This document shows positions 7,636 to 63,500 of a DNA stretch of 64,000 nt, in pieces. The position numbers and the translations under genes are program-made. A model generated the notes under the pieces. That model saw nothing but the letters and a program-made list of their open reading frames with translations, had not been told where the DNA came from and did not search any database. Origin of the DNA: Cyanidioschyzon merolae (lineage: Eukaryota); assembly GCA_000091205.1 (NCBI GenBank), contig AP006495.2; one strand, written 5' to 3'. The stretch's first letter is position 1, and every line of letters starts with the position of its first letter.

Positions 7636-8742
<1,107 letters not shown>

Positions 8743-9318: not shown

Positions 9319-11512
9319 TTAGACAAAACGTCTCCAACCGACGTGCAGACGCCTCCACGTCTTTCTCGGCCGGCCACCGAATACTGCTTCCAACTTTTTC
9401 TCACATAATACCACCTTGAGAGGTTGTTCAACAAAATTCCCTCTTGTGAAGTCTGGAGGCCTTGTCTCCAGCACCGCACATCTCCTTGTATTGATAGCGG
9501 CGTTAGAGTCTCTGTTCACAAACTCCATACATTTCTTTCCATCACTGGTTGTACTTACTAACGCAAGCAATCCACGAACTTTCGCTCCCCTTTCCACTTG
9601 CTGTTCCGTCAGCGCACCGTACTTTTTTCTATCCTCAGGGCTCCGCTGACGCTTTTCCATATCGACCCTCTGGAGTGTATAGGACGTTCGGGACTCATCT
9701 ACAGGTATCGTAACGAAACGCCGTGCACACTTCTTGTACGTTCTTGTCGTTGGAGCTGGTGTACACCCTTTTCGGGTCTTCCAGCGTCCTGCTCCATATG
9801 CTACTGCGGGCCTCTAACTCTCATTCTCCTTGAGGGTGCTCAATTGATTGAAAAAGTTGGCGAATGCACGCTGCTTACTACAGTATAGATTCATTCGCAG
9901 ACGAGCCCAGCGGGGCTTTGTATACTCCTCCCACAGCGCCTCCCAATGAGCAACACGAACTTTCACGAATTTCCGAAAAGCTTGAAAGTCTGCTCCGCGG
10001 CTCGTCACCTCGCCCAAAGCTTCTGGGTGATCCTTCATTCCTGCGTTCCACGTGTCAATTTTCTTCCTTGCATTCATGATTCCCGATTCTCAATAGTACC
10101 TTGCTCTCGGGAATCTCAACAGAAGCATATCTTTCTGAAGCAAGTTACCGTCAGTACCATCTTCCGCACGTTTGGGTTTTGCGATAGTTATGATATTTGT
10201 GTTTCAGGGTCCGCGCCAACGATAAAGTCGTTATCCTGCACTTTCTGCAACGCAGGTTCCGCCTCCTCCTTCTCTTCATCCTTCGTCACGTCAACGACAA
10301 GGTCGTTATCCTGCACTTTCTGCGTCGCAGGATCCTCCTCCTTCTCATCTTCATCCTTCGTCACGGGCGATGCCAAAGGCGAACCAGTACGATCTTTCTT
10401 CAACCGCCGATAGTGTACATACACGGCTACTCCATCGGTTTCGATCAACCCAGTGAATACCTTTTTTCTGCTCACTCTCAGACGTTTGGAATCGAAGATA
10501 TTCTTCCAGTGGGTCTCCCGGTTTTCGCCAGTGAAGTCCTCCCTGCTGACATTGACCTCCGGACTGATCTCCCTCATGATGCCGAAAAGGACTCTGGAGT
10601 CGATACTCACAAAAAATGTGAATTGATGGTGCACATTGGAACCACGTTGAAGCGCTTCCCCATTAGGAAAGCCTTCCGTCTCTCCCATTCTTCATTTTTT
10701 TCCTCACTCAGCTTCATCTCCGGTTTGACTTCGAGCTTTCGGTCCAGAAACACGAAACAGCGCAGGACGAGGCGATTGTATCTTTCCTTATCTTTTTTCA
10801 ACTCTGTGATCTTGTCTGTTGGATTCGCCAACCCCAGTACCGCACGGTGCTCTCGTATAGCCGCACGGATCGCAGCAGCTTTATTCGTGCTCCTGCGTAA
10901 CGCCTTCTTGTCGACAAATTCGACCTCATCTTCATGCTTGCGATCGTTCGTGATGCCATTGATAATCGCCCATATTCCTTTGCGAGAGATGCCCGGGTAC
11001 AGCGCAAACACGGCGCGTCTCATGAAACGTTCGAGGTTCATTGTCAAATGGTTCTTCAGGTTCGTGATGTACATCATCGCTCCGTGTATGTAAATATTCG
11101 AGTCACCCTTGCATCGAGTACCCTCGAAGCGGAATTCCGTGAGGTTTTCGTGGAGGGTATGCACTAGCACATTTTCGCTCCGCGCTTCCCCTGTACCAAA
11201 GATGAGGTGACAAACAAAGGTCTTCTCGAGGATCTCGTCTGGAATCTCGACTGTTTTGATGTCCGTCACGTCGCGATACATCTCCGTCGCCATATGCATT
11301 AGTCCTGACGACGTCTTTAGAATAGTCTTGGAGTACGAATCGACACGGTTTCTGATGGCGTCTCCCAACTTTTCCTTGTTCGGATCCTTGATATGTTTAA
11401 AAAGAGCGGCTTCCACCACCATCTCGCCGTACTGGCGTCTTTCTTGCGGTCGTTGACGTCGGGCACCCTGCATTTGCTTCTTGGTCGTCTCCTGGTCCTC
11501 TTTGCTCGGCAC
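9319..11512 (-). pseudogene. TnpB/Fanzor-like (RuvC-nuclease, OMEGA-family) gene, near full-length (~730 codons) but disrupted by at least 2 frameshifts and 1 in-frame TAG; copy A of a dispersed repeat family
   Basis: Four consecutive same-strand ORFs cover the region: 10607..11512 (301 aa, K/R-rich N-terminus), 10188..10688 (166 aa, 82-nt overlap in another frame, contains '[13 protein letters not shown]'), 9814..10077 (87 aa), and, after TAG at 9814-9816, an open frame 9319..9813. The 87-aa segment contains 'KKIDTWNAGM', which I align to the TnpB RuvC-II region (ISDra2 'IEDLNVKGM' as I recall it). It also contains 'HWEALWEEYTKPRWA', which I align to the conserved 'SWSEF..LEYKAEWYG' block. 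The downstream part has 'FVTIPVDESRTS' (compare 'VVKIDRFFPSSQTC', with the Zn-finger cysteines mostly lost) and 'KKCMEFVNRDSNAAINTRRC' (the RuvC-III 'DRDxNAAxNI' signature) about 45 aa from the C-terminus. Domain order matches TnpB/Fanzor. Confidence 0.5.
10222..10370. repeat. Tandem repeat, ~75 bp x2, inside the TnpB-like copy A (encodes acidic 25-aa repeats on the minus strand)
   Basis: 'gataaagtcgttatcctgcactttctgcaacgcagg...' is followed by 'gacaaggtcgttatcctgcactttctgcgtcgcagg...'. Confidence 0.8.
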
Positions 11513-12688
11513 TGTTTTTTATCCGCCAGCCGGCGACACTGTGCGTCCGTGGTCCTCCACTTGCATTTCTATGCTTTTATATTTTTGAAAACGGACCCGC
11601 TTCGAACACTTCTGGTATATACACCGAAAAATCACTTGAATATACTTGCTTCAGGCTTGAAATACTATTGGACAGAGATTTATACTTTGCTACGACTTCG
11701 ACGCAAATACATCTTGCCCGATACAGCAACAGTTCAACTAGTGGTCAGGATCGTGTTTCCCTTCAACGTCGAGATGCATGCCGTACCCCATGCATGCTAG
11801 ATATGGAGGTACACGTATCGACAACGCTATAGGAGAAAAAGAAAAGAACGAACCGCTAGCTAGCAACCAGATGACAATTTCTTCCCCCCTATGCTAAACC
11901 TAAAAGGCGGCAAAAAGTTTTCCGTATTTTCGAAAGCTTACCTTCTAGGCAGAAGGTCACGCGTGCCAGCCGGATCTGCTTCGCTAGCGCGTCATGCTCT
12001 TCCCAGTGGTGGGTGCTGAGGCGCGACTTGGGCAACTCGCCCGCAACGCGGTTTACTCTGCCACTCGGAGCGAGTATGCTGTGTCTGGCCGTCGCACTGG
12101 GAGCAATAGTGCCCTAATATATCGCTTCGCGCTTTAATGGGAAGTATGTCTGTCTGCGCGGTTTGCAGGCTCCCGGAATGATAATTTATCCTGATTCCGC
12201 CTCGGATGAACGGTGCCTCGAGGTGGCGCCCCCAGTGGTATAGCAAAGCCTTTCTGTCTCTATGATGCATCTGCACCAGCGGTATACGCGTTACGGCTGG
12301 TGCTCTCTACAGGTTCGACGCACAATGGATTGTAGAAAACGATCAGTACGCCCGAGAAGGAGTCCAGGTTATGGAACCTGGAAGTAAGGGGATCGATGGA
12401 TGCTCCACCGCGCGCTTATACCAGGCGCACAGTCGGGGAACACAGCCCAGAGTCACGGAGCTGTCAATTAGAACAAGGCATCGAACGCGGCCGGCGGCGG
12501 TTGGGCGCGCTCGAAATGCATTTGCATCAACTAGCATGAATGGGGAACGTACGTTTGCCCGTGAAAATCTCGTTACTGGGATAGGATGCTGGTGATCTCG
12601 TAGAGTGCCTTGGAATCCACAAGTGAAATGCTGCGTTATTCACAAAAAAACTATTGTCGTTCTGTTTAGTTTGAGTCTGTGAGCTGGA

Positions 12689-14047: not shown

Positions 14048-14327
14048 ATACTCGTGCTCGGCACTCGTGAATGACACGCAGCTGTCCACCGTTGCCGGCA
14101 TGCAGACGATGCATTGATGACGAGGCTGCTGGTACAGCGAGCCATTGCTGTGCGGACTGGATGCAATTCGCATTGCTGTCACAACGGTGGCGCATGCGTG
14201 ACGCCTACGTGTCCATAGCAATGCGTGCTGGTGCATGGACCCGTGCCACGCACGCACTCGATCTGTGCGTGCACATGCGACGTACTGCAGCGCAAGACTT
14301 GCTGAGCGATCATTCGCGCTGCCCGAT

Positions 14328-14355
14328 GCACTGCACTGCACTGCACTGCACTGCA
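14328..14355. repeat. Microsatellite (gcact)n x5
   Basis: 'gcactgcactgcactgcactgcactgca'. Confidence 0.9.
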
Positions 14356-16875: not shown

Positions 16876-17163
16876 GCGAAAAGCATCACAGGCGCTTCCA
16901 GCAACCGCAGGCTATCCATAGGCTAGATCAGCGTCCATGCGAGCATGCCGTGTCACGAAATACCGTCACGAGTAATCAGCTGCACAAGGTATCGATGCTT
17001 CATCCGTAGACAATACAGAATGCGAAAAGCATCACAGGCGCTTCCAGCAACCACAGGCTATCCATAGGCTAGATCAGCGTCCATGCGAGCATGCCGTGTC
17101 ACGAAATACCGTCACGAGTAATCAGCTGCACAAGGTATCGATGCTTCATCCGTAGACGATAAA
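16876..17163. repeat. Tandem duplication, ~149 bp x2, intergenic
   Basis: 'gcgaaaagcatcacaggcgcttccagcaacc[g/a]caggctatccataggctagatcagcgtccatgcgagcatgccgtgtcacgaaataccgtcacgagtaatcagctgcacaaggtatcgatgcttcatccgtagac' occurs twice, nearly identical. Confidence 0.9.
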
Positions 17164-17437
17164 AAATGTATCACCAATGGCGGCCGATGCACTTTGCAGC
17201 AGAGGCCGCTGGACGGGAATGGCGACGCGCCCGGCCCCGCGAATCGTCGTAATTCGAACACGTGTTAGAGGCCTGGCAGCACCGATGCAACGCAACACAC
17301 TACGAGCTTTGCATGAACCGCAACTGGAACGTTGGGTGAGCTAGGTGCCCGCGACTCGACGCGACGCTGCCAGACGGTAGCTGGGTCGCACCGGCTGATG
17401 CAGGAGGCAGCGCAGCGTTGTACCTTTAAGCACCGCT

Positions 17438-18715: not shown

Positions 18716-20595
18716 GCCCGTGACTGGTAGGCGATGCTCGTTATTCCTTGCGGGGGCTTGTTTGCGTTTGCGCTCCAGGCCTGAGTTGCTGGTGCTGGTG
18801 CAGCTGAACGCCTGGTATGCACGCATGTTACCGCACCGGGTGCTACACGACGGAGACGCTTTTGTTTGCTGATACAAGTCGTAGGCCGAGCAAGATCGAC
18901 GAGCGATTTGGAAACGAAGAGTCGCATTTTATTGAAACTGTGAGAACGATCACGGAGGATTTTGAGGCTCTAGCTCGCGATAACTATTTTGTGTCGTATT
19001 GTGAGTGCTGAAAAGGACCCGGTCTCTGGCCCGTTGATGAATTGTAGGTAGAAGGCGGCAACCGATGAAGAACATGAGCTTTTCGTGGTTCCCATTTTGG
19101 TTACCTTTTATGGATATGCTGCGTAGTATCATCAGCGACATGGTGTTGTATATGATTTCATGAGCATTGCGTATCCCAGAATTCCGTCTGCGCTCATTCT
19201 GATTGAGATGCTCCGGTGAAACAGGCATTAGATGTCGTTCACGTGAACCGTAACGCCGAGTCTCCGTATGATGTCATTGGGAGGCTTTTTCTCTAGCTTC
19301 ATGCCGTAATTCCGCACAAGATGCAAAAGCCGTTGTACACAGCCCGATGAATATTCTGGCACGACTTTTTTCTCGATGAGCCTGAAGCTTTGTCAGAGCG
19401 ATGCAGCTTCTCCACATTCGCTGCCAGGCGAGTTGACGGTATGGACCTGTCACGTCGAGAGCAGCAAACATTCATTCAAAAGTGTGTGTATGTGTGCCGC
19501 TCACGCTTGCATAACCAGTACTGGAGTGATTTTATAGAGAAACTTATCCCAGGTTCACGCTCCTTATTGCATATTCTCGGGAATCGGTATGCTTTCTGGG
19601 CACGATGCCCGATCGCCTTGGCGGCTCTAAATGCCTCTGTGAGGTACCTCGACGAATGCGTATCGCAGTGCACGGCAGACTATACAATGGATCATAGGCG
19701 CGTTCACGAATCTTGCGTGGACATTGGACGATTGCGCTCACGAGCTACGCAACCTAGAATCGGGGCGGACGCCACGAATGCTTGGATTCAGAAGTGCGAA
19801 ACGATACCCATTGACATCCAGCTCTTGACCGCAGGTTGAATCGAATTGTCTCTGAAACACGCGCTTTTTGGATCGAATCACTATCTCATGATGCAAAAGT
19901 CGGAAACCGGCCACGAGGCGTGGAGTCCACCGTTGATCTTTTATGCACGGCACATGCGCCGCTGGCTGATCACTTTAACGTGATCTATCTACAAAGTTCG
20001 GCAGACTCGTGCGCATATGTACGTCTGGGACAGTGACTCGGCCTTGCTGGATTGCCGCACATACCCAGACACCACCACGTAGGTACTCGCCGCGATCGCA
20101 TTTGCACCGAGTGCATCCAGCGCACAACTTTTTGGACGGCGCTCTAGTTGGAGACGACAGTTCATGGCTGTCTGTCTGCTCTCTCGTTCCCGAGCGCCGA
20201 GAACATGGCAACGCAACCCTCTTTTCGACGTTGCGTTTGCAGCGGTGGATCCACTGGCGATGCCGCTGAGGCGACTCTAAAATCGCGCTCAAAATTGGTA
20301 TCGCCTCACTAAGGCCACCGTACAGCGAATCGTCCCACTGACGCACTACATGCATCACGCGCATAAACGATAACTGGGAATCGATGCAAGAATATCGGCG
20401 ATCGCAGTCACTTTCACTTGTGTGCTCATGGACCGCTAACGTTGTCGCCAACAAGCCGTACGCGCTCCGCACATTGCTGCTGCTCATAGCATCACGCTGC
20501 GTTCCAAAACGGAGCCGCTTCGACTGTTTCCAGCGGCATCCATGAAAGTGCCCGCCAGGCCGCAGTGATTCATGCCCTGGCAAGCGCACAACCGC

Positions 20596-20911
20596 TCACT
20601 GCGATTCGATGTGATCACTGAGGCCCTGGGCGGAGCGCTCACCAGACGCTTGTCGCTCGATACGCTGGCGTTCATCGTCGTATGCACTGGCGCGGCCCGC
20701 TCGCCCCGGAAGCGCTCGATGCGATATCGCAGTCGCTGCGGCGGGCTCGAGACCTCTCCAGCCTCGCCGCTGCAGACGCCCGCCCGCAAAGTCCGAACCG
20801 TGCGCCTCGTTGACAGACAGTACAGCTGAATCGCGTAAAGTGCCCACAGCAGCGCAGTCGCTTATCTGTTCATTGGAATGCGGATCGTGCTGGTGCGCTC
20901 CCGCTGCACTC

Positions 20912-20943
<32 letters not shown>

Positions 20944-21747
20944 CGGGAGGCTCCATCCGGCAATGACCTCCAAGTTGAATGTGTATCGCGCCGGGTCGGT
21001 ACACGCTGACGCCAGGGCCGCCTCATCGGCGATGCTGCACATGATACACGTCTCATAGGGGGTAATGATCGGCTTCCAGTATGCATCGAGACAGGATGCA
21101 ATCGCCCTAAAGTACCCAAGATCACAGAACAGAACGAAAACATCGATTTCAGCGAAATTCGCGAGTTTCTCTGGGGTCAAACTCGTCATATGGAGACAGT
21201 ACACGTTCCGTTCATTGCGTTGCAAAAGCTCCTGTACGCGAGTCACTGCTTCTAGGCAGAATGGTAGGCTGAGATTCACTGTGAGCAGCCCGAATATTCG
21301 AGCGGTTTCTCGAGTGCTTCGCACCACTGCGAACCTCTTCCGCAGAAAGCGGTCTGGCAGTTGTGTAGCGCTTGCCTCCCGTTCGCGAATGCGAGATTCA
21401 CAAACCAGCCTGAGGGAACGATCGACGTAGATCACAGGTAGATCGGAGAGAACACGGCGGCCTTCGTCAGTAGCCTGGAAGTAGATGAGCGCGTCAGCGC
21501 TTGCCCGTAAACCCGATACCTCTTCGCGTTCGAGGGGACCGCTCTGCTCCAGCGACAAAAAGAGCTCGATTTCCGATTCATCTGGTTGTGCCTGTCGCCA
21601 AAGCTCATCCTGAAGCAGCCACAGCAGCTTTGGTGCGCTAACCAGCAGCTCCGTGTCAAAGCGACAGACGAGGCGGCGTACCCTTCGAGCTCGCAACGCC
21701 CTCGCTAACTCCGTGATTGCCGCCCGATCTCCCACGGTCTCAACCAT
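20596..21747 (-). CDS. DPH2: Diphthamide biosynthesis protein 2 (DPH2, Diphthamide_syn family)
   Basis: Matches to DPH2 include 'RRVRRLVCRFDTELL' (human DPH2 'RVALQFPDQLL'), 'ADALIYF', 'KLANFAEIDVFVLF' (human 'KLANFPEVDVFVLL'), 'WKPIITPYE' and the C-terminal 'GRAGRASAYDDE' (human 'GRRGIAIAYEDE'). It lacks the CC motif of catalytic DPH1. It carries a poly-Ser tract encoded by a (GAT)n microsatellite. Confidence 0.75.
20912..20943. repeat. Microsatellite (gat)n ~x10 inside DPH2 coding sequence (poly-Ser on minus strand)
   Basis: 'gatgatgatgatgatgatgatgatgatga'. Confidence 0.9.
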
Positions 21748-21999
21748 AGGGCCGAGACAATCCCACGAGATTCCTGAGTTAGGGCGTGCTCTCTGGTCCA
21801 GAGACCAATGTTGAACTTGCAGAGACGTTCCCGGAACTGCAACAATACCTGCGTTCTACGAAGCGAAAACGCTTCACGGCCACGGGATCAATGAATACCC
21901 TACGTGCAGATGCCTCCCAGTCGCTTCCGACCGGCCACCTGTTATCGGTTTCAGCTGGTCGTCATGCAACTCGACCCTGAGAGGCTGCTCCACAAAGTT

Positions 22000-22450
22000 G
22001 GATCACGTCAACTCCTCTGGCCTCGTCCTCAACACAATACATAGTCTGACATTGATGTCGGCGTTGACGTCTCGGTTCACGAACTGCATGCGTTTATTGC
22101 CGCTGGCGGAACGCATCAATGCAGGGATTCCTCGAACTCGCGCCCTCTGTGCCACTAAAGTCTCTTCATCGTCCCGTCGGGCTAACATTGCTTCTCGCCT
22201 GTCTCCGCTCTAGTTTTTCTTCTTCTTCGCCGTCAAATGCTCTTCGTCGCTCGATGGTCGGCAGAAAGAGAATTTTCTAGTTCTTTTTTCTCGGTAATCG
22301 GCGACACCTGGCTTCCAGGAACCTCGACTTTTATCCCTAGACCTTTTCCATCATCATTTCATTTCTGCATATGAACGAACTTGGGATCCATCTGCGATCA
22401 ACCGCGAAAAAGCATGTAACAAGACGATCCTGGGAGTGAAATACAAATGA
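22000..22450 (-). mobile_element. TnpB/Fanzor-like repeat family, copy B (short 3'-terminal fragment)
   Basis: 'RREAMLARRDDEETLVAQRARVRGIPALMRSASGNKRMQFVNRDVNADINVRLCIVLRTRPEELT' aligns with copy A 'RQRSPEDRKKYGALTEQQVERGAKVRGLLALVSTTSDGKKCMEFVNRDSNAAINTRRCAVLETRPPDFT'. An in-frame TAG lies just upstream. It sits in the divergent intergenic region between DPH2 and the 2OG-oxygenase gene. The upstream extent is approximate. Confidence 0.45.
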
Positions 22451-23795: not shown

Positions 23796-26356
23796 GCTGA
23801 ATACCGATGGCTTGCCACGAGCCGTTCGTCTCATGTGTGCTCGCCTCTGCTGCCTTGGACGTCCGTCGCAGACGGAACAACGAGTGAGCGGAACGCAGCA
23901 GGTGCGTTGAAAGTTTGCCTGCTCGCGACTGCTCAAACAATAAGGCCCTAATAACGTTTTGATGAATCTTTCTACCGAGATGTGTTTTCGGAAAGTGCAC
24001 GGCGCACGTTCGGTGCTCGAGTCATTGAGCAGTTACCCGCTTTGCGAGCTATTCTCGCAAACGCGAAGGTGATGTATTCCAGCAATGTATGCTGCATCTC
24101 CTGCGAAAAGGAGCTTCGAACGTCCCGTAGGCCTCTGGAATACAACGTCTCCTCCAGTGCTGCTACATGGACACAGGGAATCGCATGTAAGCGCCATGCT
24201 GGGGCACACGTTCGGTGCCGTGTTGGAAAATGCCCCTCTGTCACGCCACGAGGAAAGAGGGTCAAACTTTTGGACGGCATGCGGGCAACGATAGCCGCAC
24301 TGGATCACTTTACAATACCATGTGTGATTGTAAATAAGTGTTCACGGGCGACTACCATGCCAACCGCCATGACATCACTTATCTAAGCAGCTCTGATAGT
24401 TCGCCTTAAGCGAGACGACACCGAAGCGCATGGTGTTGAATTACTCAAAGATACCTATGAAAAAGTTTCCACGAGCTGTGCTCACAACATCCGCAATGAG
24501 ATAACAATTCTGAGTAGGACTTGCATTTACCCCAAACCCACGTTATGATTATGGAATGGAGCGGGTCCGTTCATCTACATCGTGCACACATTCTAAAGTT
24601 TTGTATGCTTCCCAGTTTCATCAACACAAGCATTTGCGGGCCTTCTCAGCGACTGTTTCCTTTCCCTCTCTCTACGATCTAGCTTCCAATACGCTGTTCT
24701 CTCTTGCTGCTCCAGCACGGTTGTCAGCAGTTGAAGCGTGCCGATGCCAGTGCCCGATTCACAATTTTACTCCTTCCATTTTGCTGTCTATGCAGGCCAT
24801 GCACGGATGCCAGTGCCCGATTCACACTGCCCGTGACATTTTCATCATCTCTGTAGACAGCGTCGATGCACTCGCAGCAGCGATGACACCTGACTTTAAC
24901 GGGACGCTCTCCTGTGTCTACCGAACCTCCTCGTCATCTGAGCGCCGACCTGCGACCAGAGACGTTCGCTTCGTCGCTCGCTACAAGCGCCTGACGGGTC
25001 CAGAAGACTCATCGCAATGCTCTCCTCGGCTTCCGCGTGCGATGCGGTACCCTGCGCTGACGGACTGCCCCCAGACTATCCCCTTGGCGAGTGCTCTGTC
25101 CGATGCATGCGCAAGCGCGTTATGTTCTTTTTGATGGATGATTTCTCGTGCGCGAGGTTGTCCATGATAAAACAAGTACCGGAACGAACATGCAGGCTGG
25201 AGATCAAGTCGAGCGCTTTGGATCCGCGTACGCTCCCTCGTTGCAAAACGATAACGTACGCTGCACTCGGAGCGATCGCTTTGATCACTAAAATCCGAGT
25301 CCAAAGCCCCGCTTTCCACCCAAACAGACGATACGAGAGCCTTCTGATAGCGTTTCCAGCTACAGGTATGATGTTGGCCCCGAATAACGTCTCGTCAATG
25401 GCCGGAAAAATAGTATGATTCCGGTTTCGAACGGAGTCGGTTATTTTTCGTGACAAGGTCAGTGAAAGTTCGACACGAGCTCGTGAACGACTCGTCCCTG
25501 GTCAACGTCGCGTATTCCTCAATGCCAACGAAGGGGCGTGAATGATTGCACACATACGTTGGTTCAAACTAGATAGATCGAGAGTTTGAGGAATGTGTGA
25601 TAGGAGCATACTGCACGTAAGAAAACTACAAGACTTGGCGCTTGTACGAAGGAATTGCTTCATGATGCAGATTATGTAACGAACCCGTGTTCAAGGACGT
25701 TGCGAATGACCCTGAATCCGGTGAAATCACGAATTCTTGCAGCAAGGCGTCGAGTGAGCCTCGCCCAACCGATATCCGAGAAACCTAAAACGAACCATAC
25801 ATCCGTAAGCCCTAATTACTGCACTTCGAATATTTGGGTTATGCTTCTCGAAACAAGTTCGAAAGAAATTCCAAGGCAGGAGCAGAGCCAGCAATACAGC
25901 ATTCCGTGGTAATCGGACGCACGTGTGTCGACCGGACAGCCCCAGCATCCAGATTCGTCGCATCGCTAGGCACCTCGCTGTTTCGAAATCCCCCAACGTG
26001 CAGCTCCAGTTTTCATTTCATTTACAGAGAACAAGGAGATCGGATTTTTGGTCTGGAGCAGTCCAGCTCATTCCACGGAAAGTGAACGAACAATCCGAGA
26101 CCCTGAAAAGCACACCTGCTCGATCGTCTATGTTCATGTGAGGGTTTTCGATGCGTCATAGAAAGATACGCATACAAGCGATGAAAAGCGGTCATACATC
26201 TTGCGGCGCTGCTACCGTCAAGCGACACATCTCGGTCCATGATAGGATTCGGACCCCAAGTCGATGCACTCGCTGCAAATGCTAGCGCCACGATGTGAAG
26301 AGCAATGCAATGAAGCAGCTGGGTGACGAACGCTTGCGTTTGCGCGGGTGCTGGGT

Positions 26357-26636: not shown

Positions 26637-28451
26637 TTACAAGTACCGCTGTCGGGCTGCATCCTTGTCAGCACCACGGTTCAACGCTTCGGTTGAAGCA
26701 GTCTCGTGACCCCAGAGCAGGCGCACGGAACCCGTGTACCAGAGGATCCGGGAGATATCCCAGCCCGCTTCGCGGAGCTGTCCGAGGAGCGGATGTGGGT
26801 CCGGTGGCGGCCAGTCACGTCCACCTGACTGCCACACGTGCAGCAGCGCCTGCAGAATGTCCACCACCTGTGCATCACAATGGAGAGCGATAAGGAAGTC
26901 ATCAGCGCGACCCTGGGTTCGGTGATAAGGACGACGTGCCCGTCGTGCCAACAAGTACCGAAGCTTTGGATCGCCCAGAAAACGTTCCCAACCGGCTGGC
27001 TTTTCAGTGGAATGCGCTGTTGCGCCATCTCCGGACTTGCTCGAAATCGTGGCACGGGCAAGATGCTCAGGGCGTCCCTGCCCTGTTCCTTCGTACGGAT
27101 CCGAAAGTAACTCATTTAGCGAGTTCACGAAGCGAATCCGATATACATGAGACCAGGGTCTCAGAAAAGACTTTTGCTCTGCTGCATTTGCCTCGGCGAT
27201 GGACGGCACTCGCTTACCGCTACTCGCGGTGTAAACGTTCAAAACGTATTCGAGGCGCGTTCGGTTCAACGTGCGCAGCTCGAGTCGAATGACGCTCTGG
27301 TACGTCGCATACAAATGTCCTGCACTGAGTAATCCATACGCCATCACCAGAGCAGAGGCATCGTGACTTGTTACTGCGGAGACCGCGATGCCGGCTCCGA
27401 TCCCGGACAGACGCCCGACCACTACTTGAGATTCACTTTTCGACGACACGTCGCCGCTATTATTTCGAATGCTGAAATGATAGAGAAACACGCGATATGC
27501 TGGGCCCGTTGCAACATCCGCAGCCTTGCGAAGCAGGTTCCCGGTCGAAGCTAGAGCCAAAAACCAGGGTGGAAACGCCAGCGTCAGCATTTCGAAGAGC
27601 GTGCCCAGCGCCATCACAAAGTCACCGTAGAAACGGAAACGTTTCGGATCGTTATCCACGCGCGGTGCGAGCTGCGTAGCCAAAGCTACTTTTGCAAAAT
27701 AACCAAGGCCGTCTTTCAGTATCCACTTCCAGGCAGCAGCGAGAGGCAGCGCGCTTGCTCCCCCGACACCCAGAGCCAGAAGCATGGACTGGGTTCCAAG
27801 AACCTCTGCCGCCTCTAGCAGTGTATGTCGCAGGATATTCCAGCGCCAAAACCGATCATAATCGCTCGACACAGCTGAAGGATAGTCGGCGGGTAGCAGT
27901 AGTGTTTGCACGAGGCGCTGAGGCCAGTTCTCAGGCCGGGTCACGGCAGTGCCGGCTGGTGGCTCAGGGACGACTCGCCAGTGCCGCTGTTCTTCGTCGT
28001 GCAAGAAGACCCTGCTGCGCCCACTTGCTTGATTTCTCTCTTCGATAAAGTATTTCGCGAAAAGGGCGCTTCTGCTCCAGCTGCTCTGTGAAGCGCGTGC
28101 TCGTCTGCGAGGCCACAGCTGTGTAGCCTCGTTCAAGCCGCTGCACCCGCCGTGAACGTAAGCGCTGAGCTGCTGCAAACGCTTTCGGTCCATGCACCCA
28201 GACAGAGAAGGGTGAACGTTCGACACGGGTAGCACCGAAGCGCTTGCAAGATCATATAATCCTTGAAGCACTGCGGTCTTGCACGAGCGCCTGCCGCAAG
28301 CCACGAAGAGCTGTTCCCGTAAAGTTTGAACGCAATGTTTCGGGACAACGGCTGCATGTGATCGCGTGCTATCTGGTACTGCACAGCAGGAGCTCGAAAA
28401 GACGATGCAATGTACCGTATAGAACATAGACGAATAGCCTGTTGGATACAT
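26637..28451 (-). CDS. RUS1 / DUF647 family protein (ROOT UV-B SENSITIVE-like); start codon ambiguous
   Basis: The DUF647 core 'LLLPADYPSAVSSDYDRFWRWNILRHTLLEAAEVLGTQSMLLALGVG' matches the RUS-family motif (as I recall it, approximately) 'LPxGYPxSVxxDYxxYQxWD...'. The first ~50 nt of the ORF (28400..28451) are homologous to the flank of repeat copy D, so the true start may be a downstream Met (e.g. 'MDRKRLQQLSAY'). Confidence 0.75.
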   Translation of the reverse strand: MYPTGYSSMFYTVHCIVFSSSCCAVPDSTRSHAAVVPKHCVQTLREQLFVACGRRSCKTAVLQGLYDLASASVLPVSNVHPSLSGCMDRKRLQQLSAYVHGGCSGLNEATQLWPRRRARASQSSWSRSALFAKYFIEERNQASGRSRVFLHDEEQRHWRVVPEPPAGTAVTRPENWPQRLVQTLLLPADYPSAVSSDYDRFWRWNILRHTLLEAAEVLGTQSMLLALGVGGASALPLAAAWKWILKDGLGYFAKVALATQLAPRVDNDPKRFRFYGDFVMALGTLFEMLTLAFPPWFLALASTGNLLRKAADVATGPAYRVFLYHFSIRNNSGDVSSKSESQVVVGRLSGIGAGIAVSAVTSHDASALVMAYGLLSAGHLYATYQSVIRLELRTLNRTRLEYVLNVYTASSGKRVPSIAEANAAEQKSFLRPWSHVYRIRFVNSLNELLSDPYEGTGQGRPEHLARATISSKSGDGATAHSTEKPAGWERFLGDPKLRYLLARRARRPYHRTQGRADDFLIALHCDAQVVDILQALLHVWQSGGRDWPPPDPHPLLGQLREAGWDISRILWYTGSVRLLWGHETASTEALNRGADKDAARQRYL

Positions 28452-29830
28452 ATTCTTTATGGAAGTGTGCGCACGGAAGACTGTATCCCTCCTTCAGGTC
28501 AGTCATCATATTGTACGGTGATGCTTGAGGAGCCCTGAAAGACATCGATAGATGCGCGCTGCAGGAAAAGCTGGCATTGTCGATGACTGGGCAATGGTAG
28601 ACAGCGGCCCGTTGATCACCTTACGGAAAGCAAAAGCGACGATAGAAAGCACAACGGCTGTCCCTGTTTCTCAACAGCTTGTTTATGTGGTCGTGAATAC
28701 ACCGGGATACAGTGACAAAAAAGTCCCAGGTTTTGCATGGCCATCTTGCCCCGAAACAGCAACCAAAGAGTTCCCGGAATCTCACTATCCATGTAATGGA
28801 GAGGGAACTCGGTTTGTTTTCCCAGTCAATGAGGCTTGCTTCGGACGAAATGATCGAAGCGTTCATGGGTATTCGAGGTGAAGCGAGCCTGTTGTATGTA
28901 CGATCGAACTCGTAGAGAATGAGAACATCACCATCTGTTCTTGCTGTCGTAGACTGATTCGGCGGCCTCAGTTTCGCTTGTATACATGGCTCGAAGAACA
29001 GAACCCACTTCATCGAATCATTGAAGACCTGTCCCTGACGTCTGGCGACGTCCCTCTACCGGACGACATGGTACTCTACCATTCTCCTGACGTTCGACCT
29101 TCCTCCGATTCTGCCGGGACGTAGCTGCTTTTGATTCCTACGTACTCTCCGTGCTTCAACTCCATCGCAGGAGTAGTTTCTATTGTGAAACGTGTGATGA
29201 TCGCTCCACTGGGCAAATCGATGAAGCATTCAGCACACTGTGACATATCGGCGGCATATCTCGCCTTCTTCCGAAAGTCCTTCACGCTCCGGGGCGGTCG
29301 CCGCGTAGCGGCATAAACAAGTGCGTTCATTTGAAGAAATGAAAAATCCAGGGAAAAGGTATGAACATGGGCGTCGAAGATCCCGGCGAGCCGTCATCAC
29401 CGGATTCGACAACATGAAAACGAAAACATCCTCTTCTGGCGGCCCATCGAGCGAAGGAATGCAGGTGACGAAGATGAAGATGAAAAAAGGGAGATACGCG
29501 TGTAAAGTCGCTTGCCCAACGGGACGACGACGAGACTCTTGCGGCACAGAAGGCACAAGTTCTGGCAATCCTTGCATTGGTTAGTTCACCCAGATGAAAT
29601 AAACGCGTGGATTTCGTGTGCAGAGACTTCAATGCCGCCATTCATATTAGACGATGTGTGGTGCTGAAGACACGACTCGCAGAGCGGACGCGATCCAATA
29701 TTGTGGAGCAGCTTGTCAGGCTCGAAACGCACGAGGAGAAGTTGCAGCCGATAGCAATCGACAGGTCGGCAAAGGCTGCACGGCGTCTTTCCGCCTGTAT
29801 TGATTTACCGTGTGGTTGCGAAACGTCTTT
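28400..29830 (+). mobile_element. TnpB/Fanzor-like repeat family, copy C (~1.4 kb, 5'-truncated, degenerate)
   Basis: DNA-level homology with copy D runs over about 1.4 kb. It starts at 'acgatgcaatgtaccgtatagaac' (copy D 'acgatgtaatgtgttttatagacc') and continues through 'gaggagccctgaaagacatcgatagatgcgcgctgcag', 'ccagtcaatgaggcttgcttcgg...gggtattcgaggtgaagcgagcctgttgtatgtacgatcgaac' and 'tctattgtgaaacgtgtgatgatcgctccactgggc'. It ends with '(M)DFVCRDFNAAIHIRRCVVLKTRLAERTRSNIVEQLV', a RuvC-III-like motif. Upstream, 'YACKVACPTGRRRDSCG' is in a shifted frame. Confidence 0.5.
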
Positions 29831-31443
29831 GCTCCGTTGAGCATGTATTGACGCGTGTGATAAGAGGAGAGATAATGGAAGCGTCGAATCTCCAGTATGT
29901 GGATGACGCTCCCTCAAACAACACAGATTGCCAGCCTGGGCACTCGGTGCGCCGCGTTTCCGAGCCTCTTCGGCACCGTTATCAGGAAAAATGGAACAGG
30001 TCTACAGATCTACTGCAGAGGTATACACTAGAATGAGGGTCTCTTCCCGCTGTCATCGATATCTGTCGTTGTGGACATTACCCGTGACTGCTTCTCATGC
30101 CTGGCTCCGAGCTCCGTATTGAAATACACCGATCTCTCATGTGGATCCAGCCGAATGTTTCGCTGTCAAAGGATGTTCATAGCAGCTTTCATGCCTCGAT
30201 TTCATGGCATCGGGCTGTAGTGAATGCATTACATGCATAGGTAGAAGCTCCGGTCTACACATCGCTTGCCATTGTCACCATCATCATCGTTGTATCCAGG
30301 CTGTGTGCGACGTATACAACGGACACACAGGGCTATGGTCTGGTGTTACCGTATACGCAGCACACCATGCGCTGCGACAGCAAACGTACGGCGGAAACAA
30401 GCGTGAGTCTACCGACTTGTTCAAGGAGCTGCAAAAAGGAAACGACTGAAAATTCCCTTCGTATCGTGGTAGCCTAAGTTGCTGGACGCATTGGAGCGCG
30501 CATGGTTGCTTTCCTGATCCTCGAACAAAAACACGTACTACGAGAGTACGAATATCGATACCGCACGATTGCCATGGATGAATTCAGGACGGCACCCGGG
30601 TAACAAGAGCACAAGTTCGCACCGAGGCCGCCAGATGGAAACAGAGTGAACCGGGGCTCCATGCACGACCACTTGCAACGCAAACTGGCTGAACATGATT
30701 TGGGAACCGATCGTCGGTGAAAATCTTGCGTTTGTCGGATTCCAGCACCAAAAGTGTACCCAAAAGCACTTTCTGCTCTCTGGCTCGGACGCCTCGATCA
30801 ATATCCGATAATGTCTGATGCTTCATGATCGTCCAAGGGCTTCGTGTCCAGCGAACTTTGGACTGGATGTTTTTATTACCAGTCTGAGCATTGTGCGGAA
30901 ACGCTGCATATTTCCGATGGAAAACATCAGTATCTCGAAGAGCGTTCATTGGATTCCCGCGCGGTGCACGGCACCTATATGGTACGGTCACTCATCCGGA
31001 ATCGCTAAAGTGGCATACCGAGACTCCCGCCACCATATTCCTGGTGCATTTTTCGAACGACCATCATAATGCATCTTCCGATATTCTTGAGTATACCAGG
31101 CGACGTAAGCTGCTTTACGACGTATCCCGCCGCACTACGGAAATGCTCACCAGCGTCGATGACAACAACTTGTTGCGGATGCGTGAGCAGCGCTCATCCG
31201 TACTCCTGCTGTGCCACACTTCCAGCGCTCTCAAAACAGCGCTTCCGCACAACACCAGGACGCATCTTCACAACACAAGCACGCGCTGTTCATGATGCGA
31301 GCATCCGCATGTTGCCCTTGCCTTGAACGGCACTCGCGGGTATCGCCCTGAACACTGCGTCTCTAGAGCATGTATTCGCGGAACACATCCCCGCGGAAAC
31401 CGCGCTTGCCATCCTACCACAGCACACCCCGTTTATTCGGATT

Positions 31444-33549: not shown

Positions 33550-33582
<33 letters not shown>

Positions 33583-50067: not shown

Positions 50068-50183
50068 AGACCGGGGTGAACGATTGGCGTCAATGCATGA
50101 GGACCAGGAAAGGAGCTCTTGTCGGTATATAGTATGCACCAGGAAGCACTTGCAGTGCACGTTACGCTGCAACGGATATAATT

Positions 50184-50448
50184 GCATGTACACAGCGATT
50201 TGGCGCCAAATGCCTACGTGTCCATCCAGTGCGTGTCTAGAATGATGCATGTCGAGTGTGATGCACATGTGGTGCATGCATGCTGGTGCATGTACACAGC
50301 GTTTTGGCGCCAAATGCCTACGTGTCCATCCAGTGCGTGTCTAGAATGATGCATGTCGAGTGTGATGCACATGTGGTGCATGTACACAGCGTTTTGGCGC
50401 CAAATGCTTACGTGTCCATCCAGTGCGTGTCTAGAATGATGCACATAT
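50184..50448. repeat. Tandem repeat ~90 bp x3 in the intergenic region downstream of the giant gene
   Basis: Unit 'gcatgtacacagcg[a/t]tttggcgccaaatgcctacgtgtccatccagtgcgtgtctagaatgatgcatgtcgagtgtgatgcacatgtggtgcatg'. The second copy has a 9-bp insert 'catgctggt'. Confidence 0.9.
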
Positions 50449-50817
50449 TACCTATTGACATTGCTACGCTTTCGCACATGCAACCTGCGCTTCAGCAACC
50501 TTTTCATCCCAAGCAATAAACTGGGTATCTGTTGCACTTCGAGTGGGGGAAAGCACGGGTATCGACTTTCGGACGAAGCGCAGCTATGGGGTCTGTTTTC
50601 ATTGATGCCGATTGTTGCCGCGCAAACCCCTGCTACGGCGAGAAGTAGGTCGTGCACGTTTCATACTTGTATTGACTGAACGTATTGCCCAATTTTCCGC
50701 ACATTTCAGTTGAACAGCTCCCATAATAATCAGCACCATCCCGGAGACCGGCAGTGACAAGGGACTCCACGTTCGCGGATTCGTGTCGCCGGTGACGTCA
50801 GCCCGCATTTTGGAGAT

Positions 50818-50870
50818 GCTGGTGCTGGTGCTGGTGCTGGTGCTGGTGCTGGTGCTGGTGCTGGTGCTGG
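50818..50870. repeat. Microsatellite (gctggt)n ~x9, intergenic
   Basis: 'gctggtgctggtgctggtgctggtgctggtgctggtgctggtgctggtgctgg'. Confidence 0.9.
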
Positions 50871-50928
50871 CGCCCGCGCCTTTCAACCGTCAGGTACCAT
50901 AGTCGCCCTATCTCGGACCGGACAACGC

Positions 50929-56611: not shown

Positions 56612-59372
56612 GATGAAAAGAAGCTGGATGTTTGCAACGTGCTAGGACGTAGAAACTGTGTGCGGCGCAACGGTAGCGCAAAGTTTGCGGAAACGAACGT
56701 GCACGCTATTTCGCGCCATGCTGCACCGTTTCCGGCGCTGCGCAGAAGCTGCGTTTCTGCGCAGTGTTTGCGTACGACCCGTTCATGGGGAGCACGACCT
56801 ATGCAGCACCTTGGCGCTTCACAGGGAGCTCGTCTTATGATGCTATACGTTTTGGTGATGCTTCTGAGTCAAGTTATGCATTCGAAATTGTCATAATGAG
56901 CCGCGTATGCGACAAGTGGATCGAGATATCGGCGTGGCGGGGTCTCCCAGAGAGGGCATTCGGGTGACTCCGCGGCCGCATGCGCGCCCGGAAAAGAAGC
57001 TGCTGGAAAACGCGCTTGATGATGAGAAACTCGGCTCTATATCAAAACTGCTACAGCTCTTCCTATCTCGTATCTTTGCCGTGCGCTGCTGCGTGCAGGT
57101 GAGTCTGCTCTGGGTCAGCAAAGCCAGTACGGAAACCTAGTCTAGAGAAACCGCATGACAATCTTGAACTAGGCTGAGAGCTGCGCTAGCTTTCGATAGG
57201 CTCAACGTCACTGGCGCTTTGCTGCTACAGTTTGCGCGAGATTCGGGCAAGGAACCAATACACCGTCGTATCGAAGCCATTTGAAGGATAATGTCATTAT
57301 GGTGCGATGCTCCCAGGTTCACGTTTGCGACATGGGGGGCTCCCGCTCCATTCTAAGCAGCTATAACGAGACTACGGGGGATGATTTACCATCAGTTCAC
57401 AATGACTGCTGCATCACCAGCAGTGGTTAATGAGAACGCCGCCCCGTTATGGTGTGGCAGTGCCTGAACCGTATACGGGAGCAAAGTCCTGCGCTCGTTC
57501 GCAACGTACAGACTGTACGCTTACGCATGCAGAACGCAGAGGATTCTGAGTAGCGAGGGTGATCTCCTTCAAGAACGTCGACAGCGATAGCACCTCCGTA
57601 CACCTGTGGAAGACCAAAAAACTGCGGATCGACTAACTCCGGCGTACAGCAGAGAGATTGAGTCCAGTCAAATCGCCATTAAAACCAGCCATTGTGGGAT
57701 GGTTCGGCAATCGCTTCCTTGTCGTTTCACCTGCCTCCCGCGTGAAATACGCTGGTCGCACCGTTCACTCCGGATGATTTTTCAGTGGGCGAAGGATATT
57801 GATGGCAGCATACAGGGTGCGATTTCGCTGCTTGCGACATATGTCAACGCTCTGCACACACGCACAGTCGCAAGAATCTTTGCGTTTCCTGCCATTCTCG
57901 TATTGTTCATATGCAGCACCAGTGCTAGCTTTCCAGCTTCGATATTTAGCTGTGGGCAGCTGTTCATATACACCCACCAAGCCTCATTCTCCGAGGGCCG
58001 ATCTGTTTCGCATGAACGTCTGCTTCATCGCTTGCGAAATTCCGTGGACGCGTACAGAAGGCTTGTGTTGATGCTGCTATCCTCCGTTTGCGTGCGCGGT
58101 GCGGTACTGTGCGCCCACGGACTTCCCTCTGAGCGATCCCTCGGCAAGTACGCTGCCCGCTTCACACGCACGCGTATGCTGTTGCACTCGATTGGGCATC
58201 TGGGAAGCACGATGTTTTTCATTATGAAGCAAGTACCGGACGGGAAATCCAGACCGGAGAGCAGCTCGACAAAATCTCGATTCGTCTACGCTCCCTACGT
58301 GCTAAGCGGTGACGCATTCCCCGAGTGACGCGATCATTAGGATCATTGATTTTCGAATCCAAGGCCCTTTTCCACGGAAACGAATCGGACGAGAGCTCCT
58401 GCGAGCATATCCCATGAGCGGTATCGTGCTGTTGCCGACTACTGTTCCATTGATGGCCTGAAAGAGACAAGGATTTGTCATTTACATCGGGTCGTTTAGT
58501 ATTCGACGTGAAAATTTCATTGAATAGTTGGCATGAGCTTGCGAGCAAGTCGTCAACAATCGAATTAGGGTATTTCCCTCGTCAATCCAGCGACACGTTT
58601 TGTCGCGCCCACGAGTTGCCTTGGAACAGAAAGATCCGAATGTTGAGACATGCGTGATTTCATCATGCACCCCGAAAGAAGAGGAGATTCGTGGAGGCTT
58701 GCACGCATGCATTGGATGTTGGTGCAAATCATCGCACCAAAACCGTGTTCGACGACTTTCCGAACCACTTTTATTCTGGGGCCATGGCAAACTCCAGCTG
58801 CAGGGAGACTCGAAGAAACGTCAGCGAGTAGTCCAACGAAGATCCTAAAACAAGATATGAATCGAGAACCTTTTTTGATTAACGTCGAATCTAAAGACTG
58901 GGCATGTCAGATATGCCCGGACAAAATCCTCAGGCAAAAACATATCGCCGAGCTTTGTGATCCGCTTGAATCCGAATCGGATGCAGGATCCACATGCACT
59001 GGATCCATCAGATCGCATCGGAGGCGCGTCGCTTTGCCAAATCTGGAGCTAAAGTCACGGTAGTATAGGACCGAACTGTATATAGCTGTACTATATGATT
59101 CATAATGGGTAAATCCTGGAAGTCTGCGAGAAACGTTTGCTCGTGGCGTTGCCGGCAACGCGTCCCAGATACCGTCCCAGAGCGGTGTCCGCGGTACGCT
59201 ACAAGTGCTGTTTGAATCGTGAGTTCTGCGTCAAGTCGTTTGGCAGCAGTGGCTTTTAAAAGGAGATAATCGTACTGCATGTTTCGAACCGATAAGCGCG
59301 ACGTTGACTAGTCGGAGGCACGAAGCGAAACACTATTGGTTCTGAGCATCCTGTTTCCGAGTCTCATCGTCA

Positions 59373-61733: not shown

Positions 61734-62099
61734 CACATGTCGCGGATGTGTTTTCGACGCAAAACAGTGGATGGTGATCTGCACTGGAAAACGCTTTGGC
61801 GATGACGTCGCTCATATTCGACCTAGAGTCATGATCTGATCGGGTTTGTCCAAGTACCTGCGTGGCCCGCACCTGATGTGTAGGATTCCGAGTCCGGAAC
61901 GATGTCGAGTGCATCGAAAGAGAAAAAGATGCGTTTCGGTGCCGTTTTCTTGTGATTCGACAGCGTTGGCGCTCAAGTGACGGCTGTCGTGGATGTGCAA
62001 GCTGTTCCGCTCTCCTGCAGGCGGTGTCAACTCCAGGTATCTGCTTCTAGTCTATCAAGTCAGTTTTGTCTCGCCCTCGCTGCGGATGATAGCATGAGA

Positions 62100-63500
62100 A
62101 CGAATTCACGATGTAATGTGTTTTATAGACCGTCCATCATTTGCCCAGAGGATATAGATTCCTCACTTAACGGTACAAGGAGGAATGCATTCGTCCTTTA
62201 GTTCAGTCATACCACGGTACTCTGATGGTTGAGGAGCACTGAACGGAAGACGTAGATGTGCTCTGCGTCAAAAAATGGTATTATCGAAGCTTGCCTGCGG
62301 CCAATGATGGAAAATGACTGGCGAATCCCTACCGGCAAGCGAAAGCGACGATGGTAGCCGCCATAGGCGTCCTTGTTTCTCAACAGCTTGTTCTTTTGGT
62401 CCTGAAAGCACGGGCATCCAGTTGCAAAAAAGAGTCCTATTTCAATCACGGCCATCTTCCACGGAAATAGCGGTGACAGCGTTCCTGTAACGTTGCGATC
62501 CGGATGAAACACAGGGACGTAGGTTTTTGTTTCCAGTCGATGAGAATTTCTTCGGGTGCAACGGTCGGAGTGCGTACGGGTATTCGCGGTGAAGCGAGCC
62601 CGTTGTATGTGAGATCGAACGTGAAGAGATCGACGACACCATCTGTTCTCGACGTGGTAAATTCATTTGACGGCCTCAGTTTGGCTCGTAGAGAAGGCTC
62701 ATCGAATAGCAACAACCACTTTGTCGAATCATTGAAGACTTTTGTCTGACGTCTGACGACGTCTTTCTTTTGGACAAAGTGGTATTCCACCATTCTCCTT
62801 GTGTTCGAGCTTTTGCGAATTCTATGTGGATAGAGCTGCTTTTCATACTTCTGTACGCTCCATGGTTGAATTCCGTTTTAGGATTCATTTCTATTGTGAA
62901 ATATAATGATCGCTCCACTGGGCGGATCGCTGATGCTCTCAGCACACGGTGACACACTGGAAGCATATTTCGCCTTTCTTGCGCAAGTGCTTCTCCCTCC
63001 GGGCAGGTTTCCACGCAAGGGCGTAAAGAAGTAGGTTCATTTTAAAAAAATAATGGATGAATTCGAATGCGCATTTCACAGGGTCGAGACTGAGAGAGCG
63101 AGAAGACAGCAGAGCGCACCGGCGATAGAAACGCACGGAGAGATGACAGAGCACCAAATGATGTCGAGGGCGCGAGTTCGGGCAATTCTTACATTGATGA
63201 GTTCCACCAGCGGGAATAAATGCATAGAGTTCGCGAACCCAGACTTCAATGCCGCCATCAACATCAGACAATATCTGGTGTTGAAGACGAGACCCAGGGA
63301 GCTGACGCGATGTAGCTCTGTGGGGCAGCCTCTCAGGGTCGTACTGCGTCCGAATGAAAAAAGAAATCGATATCAGGAGCTCCGTCAAAATAGACCCGAA
63401 CGCGTCTGCGGGAGAGTATTAATTTACCCCAGAAAGAACAGAAACTATGTCGCTCAACAGAACAAGCGCGCGTCGAGTGGAACAGCGTTATCGCAACGCG
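62100..63500 (+). mobile_element. TnpB/Fanzor-like repeat family, copy D (~1.4 kb, 5'-truncated, degenerate)
   Basis: Collinear DNA homology with copy C. Its coding-strand ORF ends 'LMSSTSGNKCIEFANPDFNAAINIRQYLVLKTRPRELTRCSSVGQPLRVVL' (RuvC-III-like). Upstream, 'PCVRAFANSMW' is homologous to copy A 'CSKQRAFANFFNQL'. It lies just downstream of the transporter gene. Confidence 0.5.

Follow-up and report, generated by a model that had tools for sequence, protein, structure and literature searches.

The 64-kb stretch of Cyanidioschyzon merolae contig AP006495.2 studied here (hereafter the window) contains dispersed repeats that we interpret, with a probability of about 0.85, as old and inactive nuclear copies, in strain 10D, of DNA transposons that carry Fanzor1. 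Fanzor1 proteins are TnpB-like, RuvC-type RNA-guided DNA endonucleases. The repeats are homologous to one another, their anatomy is legible, their genes are pseudogenes, related elements are spread over many loci with unrelated flanks, and the protein that they once encoded has the Fanzor1 fold. A first-pass annotation of the window had reported four copies (A to D) that originated from a Fanzor1/TnpB-like gene, with A as the long copy and the others as fragments that include its 3' end, and had proposed that such an element would ride on a DNA-transposon superfamily. Both points hold, and the superfamily appears to be the IS630/Tc1-mariner type (i.e. with a DDE_3 transposase).

Self-BLASTN of the window bears out a real repeat family, because the matching blocks among copies B, C and D are collinear and lack low-complexity character. 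The coordinates first proposed were nearly right and are refined here to 9294-12404 for copy A, 21843-22414 for copy B, ~28319-29850 for copy C and ~62048-63470 for copy D. Copies C and D had been said to share 1.4 kb of collinear DNA; two collinear blocks are indeed present (28472-29339 with 62176-63049, 71% over 882 bp, E 1e-113; 29549-29724 with 63166-63341), but the central segment between them is not homologous (29340-29548 in C, 63050-63165 in D). Copy B, which lies on the other strand, matches both (21843-22383 with C 29850-29318, 68% over 544 bp, E 1e-44; 21972-22147 with D 63341-63166, 81% over 176 bp, E 7e-41). Between copy A and copies B, C and D, similarity is seen at the protein level only, in the last ~50-72 codons (tblastx E 1e-22, 3e-13 and 7e-14). 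Mismatches between C and D show no periodicity by codon position and hence carry no frame information.

Judged by sequence, copy A (9294..12404, minus strand) represents the published CMe-1A family at full length, an identity that the first-pass annotation did not recognize. CMe-1A was described from the same genome with a 3169-bp consensus (Bao & Jurka 2013, Mobile DNA 4:12), and copy A shares its TE-N2 5' module and its 734-amino-acid (aa) Fanzor1 gene. Positions 66-3135 of that consensus align to window positions 12404->9294 with 82-86% identity (83.6% in a global alignment). The family numbers ~150 copies that are ~80% identical to a ~3-kb consensus; its 5' 635 bp correspond to TE-N2_CMe, which itself has ~70 copies in the 16.5-Mb genome; it has neither terminal inverted repeats (TIRs) nor target-site duplications, its class was given as unknown, and CMe-1 was listed as Fanzor1 (PMC3627910). 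In copy A, the TE-N2_CMe-like module (~11830-12404, minus strand) is followed by a leader and a Fanzor1 pseudo-open reading frame (9319..11512, minus strand) that was delimited by three-frame translation, hidden Markov model (HMM) searches and tblastn. This pseudo-open reading frame matches one protein family in five collinear pieces in differing frames (11518-10610, 10691-10191, 10203-10093, 10089-9817 and 9813-9322), so that the gene has two frameshifts (near 10610-10690 and 10191-10203 in the three-frame translation) and two in-frame stops (10090-10092 and 9814-9816). Likewise, tblastn with the homologue P0001 returns three high-scoring segment pairs in three frames. RuvC motifs are still legible (i.e. 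GADPE, VDESRTS and NRDSNAAIN). An acidic KHEE/KDE...QDNDLVV segment precedes RuvC-I and is built from a 75-77-bp tandem unit, also in homologues (e.g. P0007 and P0001), with two to at least five repeats among family members. In copy A, it contains a 77-bp tandem duplication (10214..10365, minus strand) coding the KDE..QDNDLVV repeat, with 87% identity between 10214-10290 and 10289-10365 by self-BLAST; this is a 74-bp insertion relative to the CMe-1A consensus, and a coverage peak coincides with it. The substitutions that separate copy A from the consensus form an ordinary spectrum (transition/transversion ratio 1.28, with GC->AT and CpG bias), on which grounds we rejected repeat-induced point (RIP)-like mutation, considered for the many copies with stops and without frameshifts.

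The assignment of the CMe-1 protein family to Fanzor1 is firm, as judged from sequence profiles and a structure model. Pfam and Protein Data Bank (PDB) searches with the reading-frame pieces of copy A or with its repaired 730-aa translation gave no match, and family profiles were needed. The repaired translation has 43 relatives, the best being P0001 (752 aa, 67% identity), and an exhaustive profile search reached 3,505 cluster representatives at E <= 0.001. In the PDB, a 76-member profile matches solely the solved Fanzor1 proteins (PpFz 9CF0, E 1.8e-22; SpuFz 8GKH, E 3.5e-17; GtFz 9CER, E 9.9e-14). D484, E656 and R724-D725 (the RuvC catalytic triad) are invariant over the 76 sequences. An AlphaFold2 model of P0001 built from the 76-sequence alignment has a mean local confidence (pLDDT) of 82 and a predicted template-modelling (TM) score (pTM) of 0.80; its sole low-confidence part is segment 376-469, i.e. 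the acidic repeat. In a Foldseek search of the PDB, the top seven matches of this model are all Fanzor1 proteins (E 8e-16 to 2e-13, TM-score up to 0.73), with Cas12 proteins next, at E > 0.02. The model thus shares its fold (SpuFz E ~1e-15, TM-score 0.71-0.73) and the RuvC D-E-D triad with SpuFz1 (from SPu-1 of Spizellomyces punctatus; 8GKH), PpFz and GtFz, while identity to these proteins is 13-15%, and CMe-1, whose copies in the window are pseudogenes, differs from them by its THHELGC...EKC motif and the acidic tandem-repeat insertion. The C4 zinc finger that the 2013 motif definition places between RuvC-II and RuvC-III is absent from the CMe-1 lineage, including copy A, which has THHELGC..EKC / YTLQRV and not CxxC..CxxC, and P0001 scores only E 0.23 against the Pfam TNB model. 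We do not regard the missing finger as decisive, because the 2013 authors included CMe-1 and the fold match is unambiguous.

All copies in the window are relics and not functional members of the family: copy A carries the lesions listed above, and B, C and D, like the further relics E to H described below, are fragments. Decay extends beyond the window, since a metagenome scan found 334 relatives, and among 80 loci that were retrieved almost all are interrupted by in-frame stops or frameshifts. The broken reading-frame pattern of copy A is identical in three metagenome contigs of the same locus.

Copies C and D contain a second gene. Sequence like their first kilobase is found in at least eight other contigs (~67-73% identity), and a consensus of eight C/D-type copies contains a transposase whose coding strand is that of the Fanzor tail. 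It reads VDETCF...LLDNVVFHH...PPYAPWFNPIE, with LLFIPPYAPWFNPIE after LLDNVVFHH, and matches Pfam DDE_3 (PF13358) with E 1.8e-17 and 64 bits (cut-off 28.6). Its database homologues (n=76) are mostly ~300-aa PF13358 (+PF01498) transposases. The DD(E/D)-type DDE_3 signature is thus seen in consensus sequences, the individual copies being mutated. Long antisense reading frames in C and D (e.g. 28621-29013, minus strand) were also considered as protein-coding and rejected, as they have no Pfam match and the consensus gave DDE_3 on the plus strand. At one further locus (L060), the same transposase leads directly into a Fanzor gene that is full-length, though decayed, and has the same orientation.

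Copy C (28319..29850, plus strand, start approximate; tblastn and HMM) begins with a mariner-type transposase relic (28615-29193; 57% identity to the consensus transposase over 196 aa, tblastn E 1e-58), continues with the Fanzor leader and ~57 N-terminal codons (~29340-29548) and ends with the last ~100 Fanzor codons and the 3' end (29549-29850; Fanzor HMM positions 659-719). Copy D (~62048..63470, plus strand; tblastn and HMM) has a transposase relic at 62333-62946 (tblastn E 3e-62), followed by a Fanzor fragment that begins at the RuvC-II 'DEF' motif (63053 onward; HMM positions 606-703, E 9e-22), where the reading frame 63053-63628 starts with MDEFECAF. Two deletion junctions can thus be distinguished: (i) the C-type, in which transposase, CMe-1 leader, ATG and ~57 codons are followed by a jump to about codon 655 (copy C and loci L041/42, L066, L081/43 and L068); and (ii) the D-type, in which the transposase leads straight into 'MDEF...' of RuvC-II (copy D and loci L025 and L085). 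These differing junctions explain the non-homologous middle of the C-D alignment. Copy B (21843..22414, minus strand; consensus, HMM and BLASTN) is an internally deleted CMe-1-type element with the C-type junction and without the transposase part. It was initially read as the last ~65 codons only; in fact, it has kept both ends of the gene, with leader, ATG and N-terminal stub on one side and the last ~85 codons and 3' tail on the other. Accordingly, the CMe-1A consensus matches copy B in just two segments (837-961 with 22414-22284; 2840-3088 with 22147-21902), and the Fanzor HMM matches it at family positions 637-717. At E 1e-4, BLASTN finds no match between the CMe-1A consensus and copies C or D, which indicates a related but distinct subfamily; in them, a DDE_3 transposase replaces TE-N2, an arrangement not described in PMC3627910. 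Copies are unrelated in their flanks and have a sharp 5' boundary at (TA)GTCTTTCAACTCAG; TA directly precedes this boundary in 5/7 copies. All three of B, C and D are derivatives with internal deletions, and these derivatives themselves spread.

A second set of relics in the window repeats this architecture. Family 2 comprises relics F (5941..7187, plus strand), G (57640..58740, minus strand) and H (24547..25781, minus strand), each spanning ~1.2 kb, and ~20 other loci. Relic F combines a DDE_3/Tc3-type helix-turn-helix transposase relic with the C-terminal part of a Fanzor/TnpB gene and is collinear with G (BLASTN 71% over 277 bp; tblastx chain E 9e-31) and H (BLASTN 67% over 279 bp; tblastx chain E 1.5e-30). 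A 15-copy consensus matches the Fanzor HMM (E 4.8e-20) and includes a CxxC..CxxC zinc ribbon (CHRC..CMKC) and NRDLNAAINI; it passes the Pfam cut-offs for Cas12f1-like_TNB (PF07282, E 2.5e-8) and, in its 5' half, for DDE_3 (PF13358, E 2.9e-10), with a weak match to HTH_Tnp_Tc3_2. Relic G still has a RuvC-III-like 'CRKQRNRTLYAAINILR'. By these profile matches, family 2 is another transposase plus Fanzor-tail derivative.

These observations fit the following scenario. In the ancestor of C and D, an IS630/Tc1-mariner-type DDE transposase gene immediately preceded the Fanzor gene, both reading in one direction. Internal deletions removed most of the Fanzor gene and spared the transposase gene and the 3' end; the shortened elements then reached many sites, with copy B as a 5'-truncated copy of a C-type derivative. 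We infer that the DDE transposase moved the ancestral element by cut-and-paste and that derivatives whose deletions kept the ends would still have been mobile. By analogy with characterized Fanzor1 (e.g. SpuFz with its omega-RNA, 8GKH), the ancestral protein was presumably an RNA-guided nuclease, and insertion was probably followed by neutral decay, in line with the lack of codon periodicity between C and D and with the substitution spectrum of copy A.

The closest architectural parallels are PUl-1 and PUl-2 of Pythium ultimum and PGv-1 of Phaeocystis globosa virus, in which a Tc1/mariner-type transposase lies upstream of Fanzor1 in the same orientation (PMC3627910). This arrangement is shared by L060 and, in deleted form, by C, D and F/G/H. 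Around DN..H...PPYSP.LNP.E, the PUl-1 transposase can be aligned, weakly, with the C/D consensus (E 1.7e-7). In contrast to the PUl elements, which have 24-33-bp TIRs, TA duplications and some intact reading frames, the elements studied here are all decayed and no TIRs were found. Copy A was already known, and B, C, D and F/G/H are new examples of mariner-type transposons that carry Fanzor1. What goes beyond the 2013 description is that a transposase gene upstream of Fanzor in related subfamilies is a candidate answer to the family's 'unknown classification', and that internally deleted derivatives, not just full-length copies, have spread through the genome.

Several observations weigh against the explanation given above. 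The transposase stands beside a full-length Fanzor at L060 only, most full-length CMe-1A copies carry the TE-N2 module and not a transposase, and no transposase reading frame with intact catalytic residues was found among the loci examined; the nearest to intact is at L085, where the frame is open but catalytically mutated. The check for TIRs suggested in the first-pass annotation gave none for any subfamily: there is no consistent inverted match between the ends of seven C/D-type copies, and the CMe-1A right-end motif CAGTAGTGGCG never occurs at left ends and has no TIR partner upstream, although at ~30% divergence between copies short TIRs could have been erased. The TA target duplication is just suggested, on one side, by the 5' TA noted above. 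Also, the long 3' hairpin of CMe-1A resembles the ends of Helitron or IS200/IS605 elements more than those of mariner, and a conserved omega-RNA structure could not be demonstrated from 41 aligned 3' ends or from manually chosen stems.

Most CMe-1A copies end with ...GCCACTACTGTAC, followed by a long hairpin with a 13-18-bp stem in one of two sequence variants, i.e. a GTTCGA-CTT-TCGAAC type and a ACGTTTTTC-TTTT-GAAAGACGT type (e.g. L077:2620-2657 and L019:8440-8473, among loci L004-L084). Both variants are stable (-19.7 to -22.2 kcal/mol, z -4 to -4.9), and the C/D-type ends fold with z -2.8. The published CMe-1A consensus ends ~14 nt before the complete hairpin stem. We rejected the idea that the hairpin is a host target sequence, as it is confined to Fanzor 3' ends. 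Compared with the consensus, copy A lacks the hairpin: its 3' flank does not fold (z +0.83), and the 3' tip of this copy is either cut short or disrupted.

The main uncertainty concerns how CMe-1A/TE-N2 copies without a transposase were moved; a Helitron- or IS605-like mechanism is possible for them because of the hairpin end and the absence of TIRs. Extended to the whole system, this would mean that CMe-1-type elements moved by a hairpin-dependent single-strand route (Helitron2-like or IS200/IS605-like HUH), and that the transposases of C, D and F/G/H belong to a separate mariner lineage that captured Fanzor pieces. Such a route is in keeping with the published lack of TIRs and target-site duplications in CMe-1A, with strong 3' hairpins at Fanzor ends only, with the folding of C/D-type ends and with the existence of Fanzor1-carrying Helitron2 elements that have terminal hairpins (PMC3627910). 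We nevertheless consider it unlikely. A DDE_3 gene occurs in two independent subfamilies with the same architecture as the mariner-Fanzor element PUl-1, TA precedes most 5' boundaries, and no Rep/HUH gene was noticed near any copy, with the limit that no systematic search for one was made. The bacterial IS200/IS605 and IS607 elements (TnpB with omega-RNA) represent the ancestral nuclease lineage and resemble the present elements in their subterminal hairpins and in the guide-RNA gene expected over the 3' end of the reading frame; by contrast, the elements of the window have a eukaryotic host, no Y1 or serine recombinase and, where a partner is present, a DDE_3 transposase. It is about an even bet that the DDE_3 transposase mobilized the whole 'unclassified' CMe-1/TE-N2 family.

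A second alternative is that the retained pieces serve the host or the element (e.g. as promoter modules or omega-RNA-like genes) and are under selection. At least 100 codons from the 3' end of Fanzor, together with the hairpin, survive in C-type, D-type and family 2 deletions alike, a solo TE-N2-like piece (X, described below) ends ~130 bp from the GAPDH ATG, copy C overlaps the 5' region of RUS1, and RNAalifold predicts one long-range helix, CAGTAGTGGGTGGC...GCCACTACTG, across the 41 copies. However, an element that stays mobile after an internal deletion has to have kept its ends, the ~30% divergence between copies shows no signal of constraint, and the predicted helix lacks compensatory changes. 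Six manual stems are barely above shuffled controls (80.8% versus 80.0% paired; covariation 0.105 versus 0.095), Rfam at gathering thresholds has no match in the window, and no relic is detectable at the syntenic locus in Cyanidiococcus yangmingshanensis. A selected function is therefore a doubtful explanation, with little probability left to it. The same low standing applies to a more specific idea, namely that B/C/D and F/G/H are 'guide-only' derivatives, which would have shed the Fanzor body, kept the omega-RNA-coding 3' module and hairpin, and relied on full-length CMe-1 copies to provide Fanzor protein in trans for RNA-guided homing or retention; mobilization of the whole family by the DDE_3 transposase is the likelier of these two proposals. 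If true, the guide-only idea would account for the survival of at least 300 bp from the 3' end of Fanzor in three independent deletion types; an omega-RNA, if made, would be expected as a discrete species of ~150-250 nt that stops at CACUACUGUAC or at the hairpin.

The reading initially given to B, C and D, as progressively 5'-truncated copies of the Fanzor gene of copy A, with C and D starting near RuvC-I and B reduced to the tail, is now very improbable. In its favour, the RuvC-III region and tail are common to all four copies and D reaches back to the RuvC-II 'DEF' motif. But tblastn with 191 Fanzor proteins and searches with two family HMMs found no Fanzor similarity in C 28319-29340 or D 62048-63035, where the same-strand DDE_3 transposase lies, and recovered just the last 60-100 Fanzor codons in B, C and D; moreover, C and B keep the region of the Fanzor start codon, which makes the lesion an internal deletion. 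A local origin by segmental duplication or gene conversion of intergenic DNA, suggested by the presence of several copies within 64 kb, has next to no probability, because the same internal junctions and sharp boundaries occur on many other contigs with unrelated flanking genes and the copies in the window are as diverged from one another (68-81%) as from copies elsewhere.

As Fanzor1-carrying transposon relics, the repeats can be placed in their genomic setting. In addition to the four copies reported first, the window contains relics E, F, G and H and the TE-N2-like piece X; together, the relics total ~11.4 kb, or about 18% of the window. That the density, which had been called high for a compact genome, is exceptional is not supported, given the ~150 CMe-1A and ~70 TE-N2_CMe copies published for the genome (PMC3627910) and the recurrence of C/D-type and family 2 relics beside unrelated loci. 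The relics also do not all lie in 5' promoter regions, as had been proposed. By the open reading frame map, they occupy divergent, tandem and convergent intergenic regions: D lies 3' of the transporter gene, F lies 3' of GAPDH, and H lies between the 2-oxoglutarate (2OG) oxygenase and RUS1 genes, a convergent pair by that map (not by an annotation check). Their intergenic placement probably reflects survivorship in a gene-dense genome. The C. merolae genome is usually called nearly repeat-free; that about 18% of the window is relic DNA, a large share of its intergenic DNA, bears on promoter and start-codon annotation (e.g. of RUS1 and GAPDH). From the old and diverse CMe-1 copies, one could also rebuild an ancestral Fanzor1 of a thermo-acidophile, together with its guide RNA.

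At the Cyanidiococcus locus mentioned above, the SQS-GAPDH spacer is 654 bp, compared with 1835 bp here, and a second GAPDH paralogue (4515-5579 of our locus L086, from JANCYV010000009.1) stands between GAPDH and the carrier gene, where C. merolae has copy A. This sequence comparison is consistent with lineage-specific insertion of the relics, and the divergence of Cyanidiococcus would also allow their complete erosion.

X (8788..9263, plus strand) is a solo TE-N2_CMe-like relic that lies tail-to-tail with copy A, an arrangement not seen in the CMe-1A consensus. Positions 84-282 of that consensus match X at 8903-9105 (76%), and X has an inverted match to 12190-12416 (68%). X-like sequence (81-87%) lies upstream of Fanzor copies at about 14 loci. 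We considered X and its inverted partner as long TIRs of copy A and rejected this, as the arrangement is absent at other loci and because the 5' partner is the canonical TE-N2 module of CMe-1A and X an adjacent solo relic. As X is only ~130 bp from its start codon, the promoter of GAPDH, a highly expressed gene, is within or right beside transposon-derived DNA (8658-9263). Elsewhere, several contigs have two Fanzor copies within a few kilobases (i.e. L006 at 14-1594 and 2940-5649, L063, L032, L036 and L068), some of them head-to-head with a TE-N2-like piece in between, which suggests nested or clustered insertion.

Relic E (30183..30895, plus strand) is a very degraded Fanzor fragment, for which the evidence is weak. 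It consists of RuvC-II 'AMDEFRTA' and RuvC-III 'ASINIR*C' motifs in the correct order and spacing, eleven weak collinear tblastn matches (best E 0.006) and HMM matches at positions 431-479 and 508-528.

The window has a G+C content of 55.9% and long, intron-free open reading frames. Pfam agrees on the neighbouring genes (i.e. GAPDH, mitochondrial carrier, diphthamide synthase, RUS1/UVB_sens and CitMHS/TrkA-C transporter), with a weak TauD-like match for the 2OG oxygenase. The GAPDH, Aralar carrier and sac1-like transporter are identical to C. merolae 10D BAM81022.1, BAM81023.1 and BAM81033.1, and near-identical contigs are present in several Joint Genome Institute (JGI) metagenomes. The first ~45 codons of the long RUS1 reading frame (ATG at 28451, minus strand) are antisense to the 5' end of copy C (28319-28451); translation of RUS1 probably begins at an ATG further downstream, unless the N-terminus is transposon-derived. 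Directly past the diphthamide-synthase reading frame, two same-frame reading frames (19975-20589 and 20596-21747, minus strand) are separated by one stop codon.

Other repeats in the window concern tandem arrays. A near-perfect array (99.5-99.8%) of 84-bp units at 40448-40968 codes 28-aa protein repeats and sits in a giant reading frame of 5797 codons (32674-50067). A 146-bp tandem duplication (97%) lies at 16876-17168 and a ~100-bp tandem repeat (91-97%) at 50183-50443. Low-complexity runs with a 6-bp unit (49533-49584, 50811-50873 and 34561-34600) are common to the giant reading frame and the region after it.

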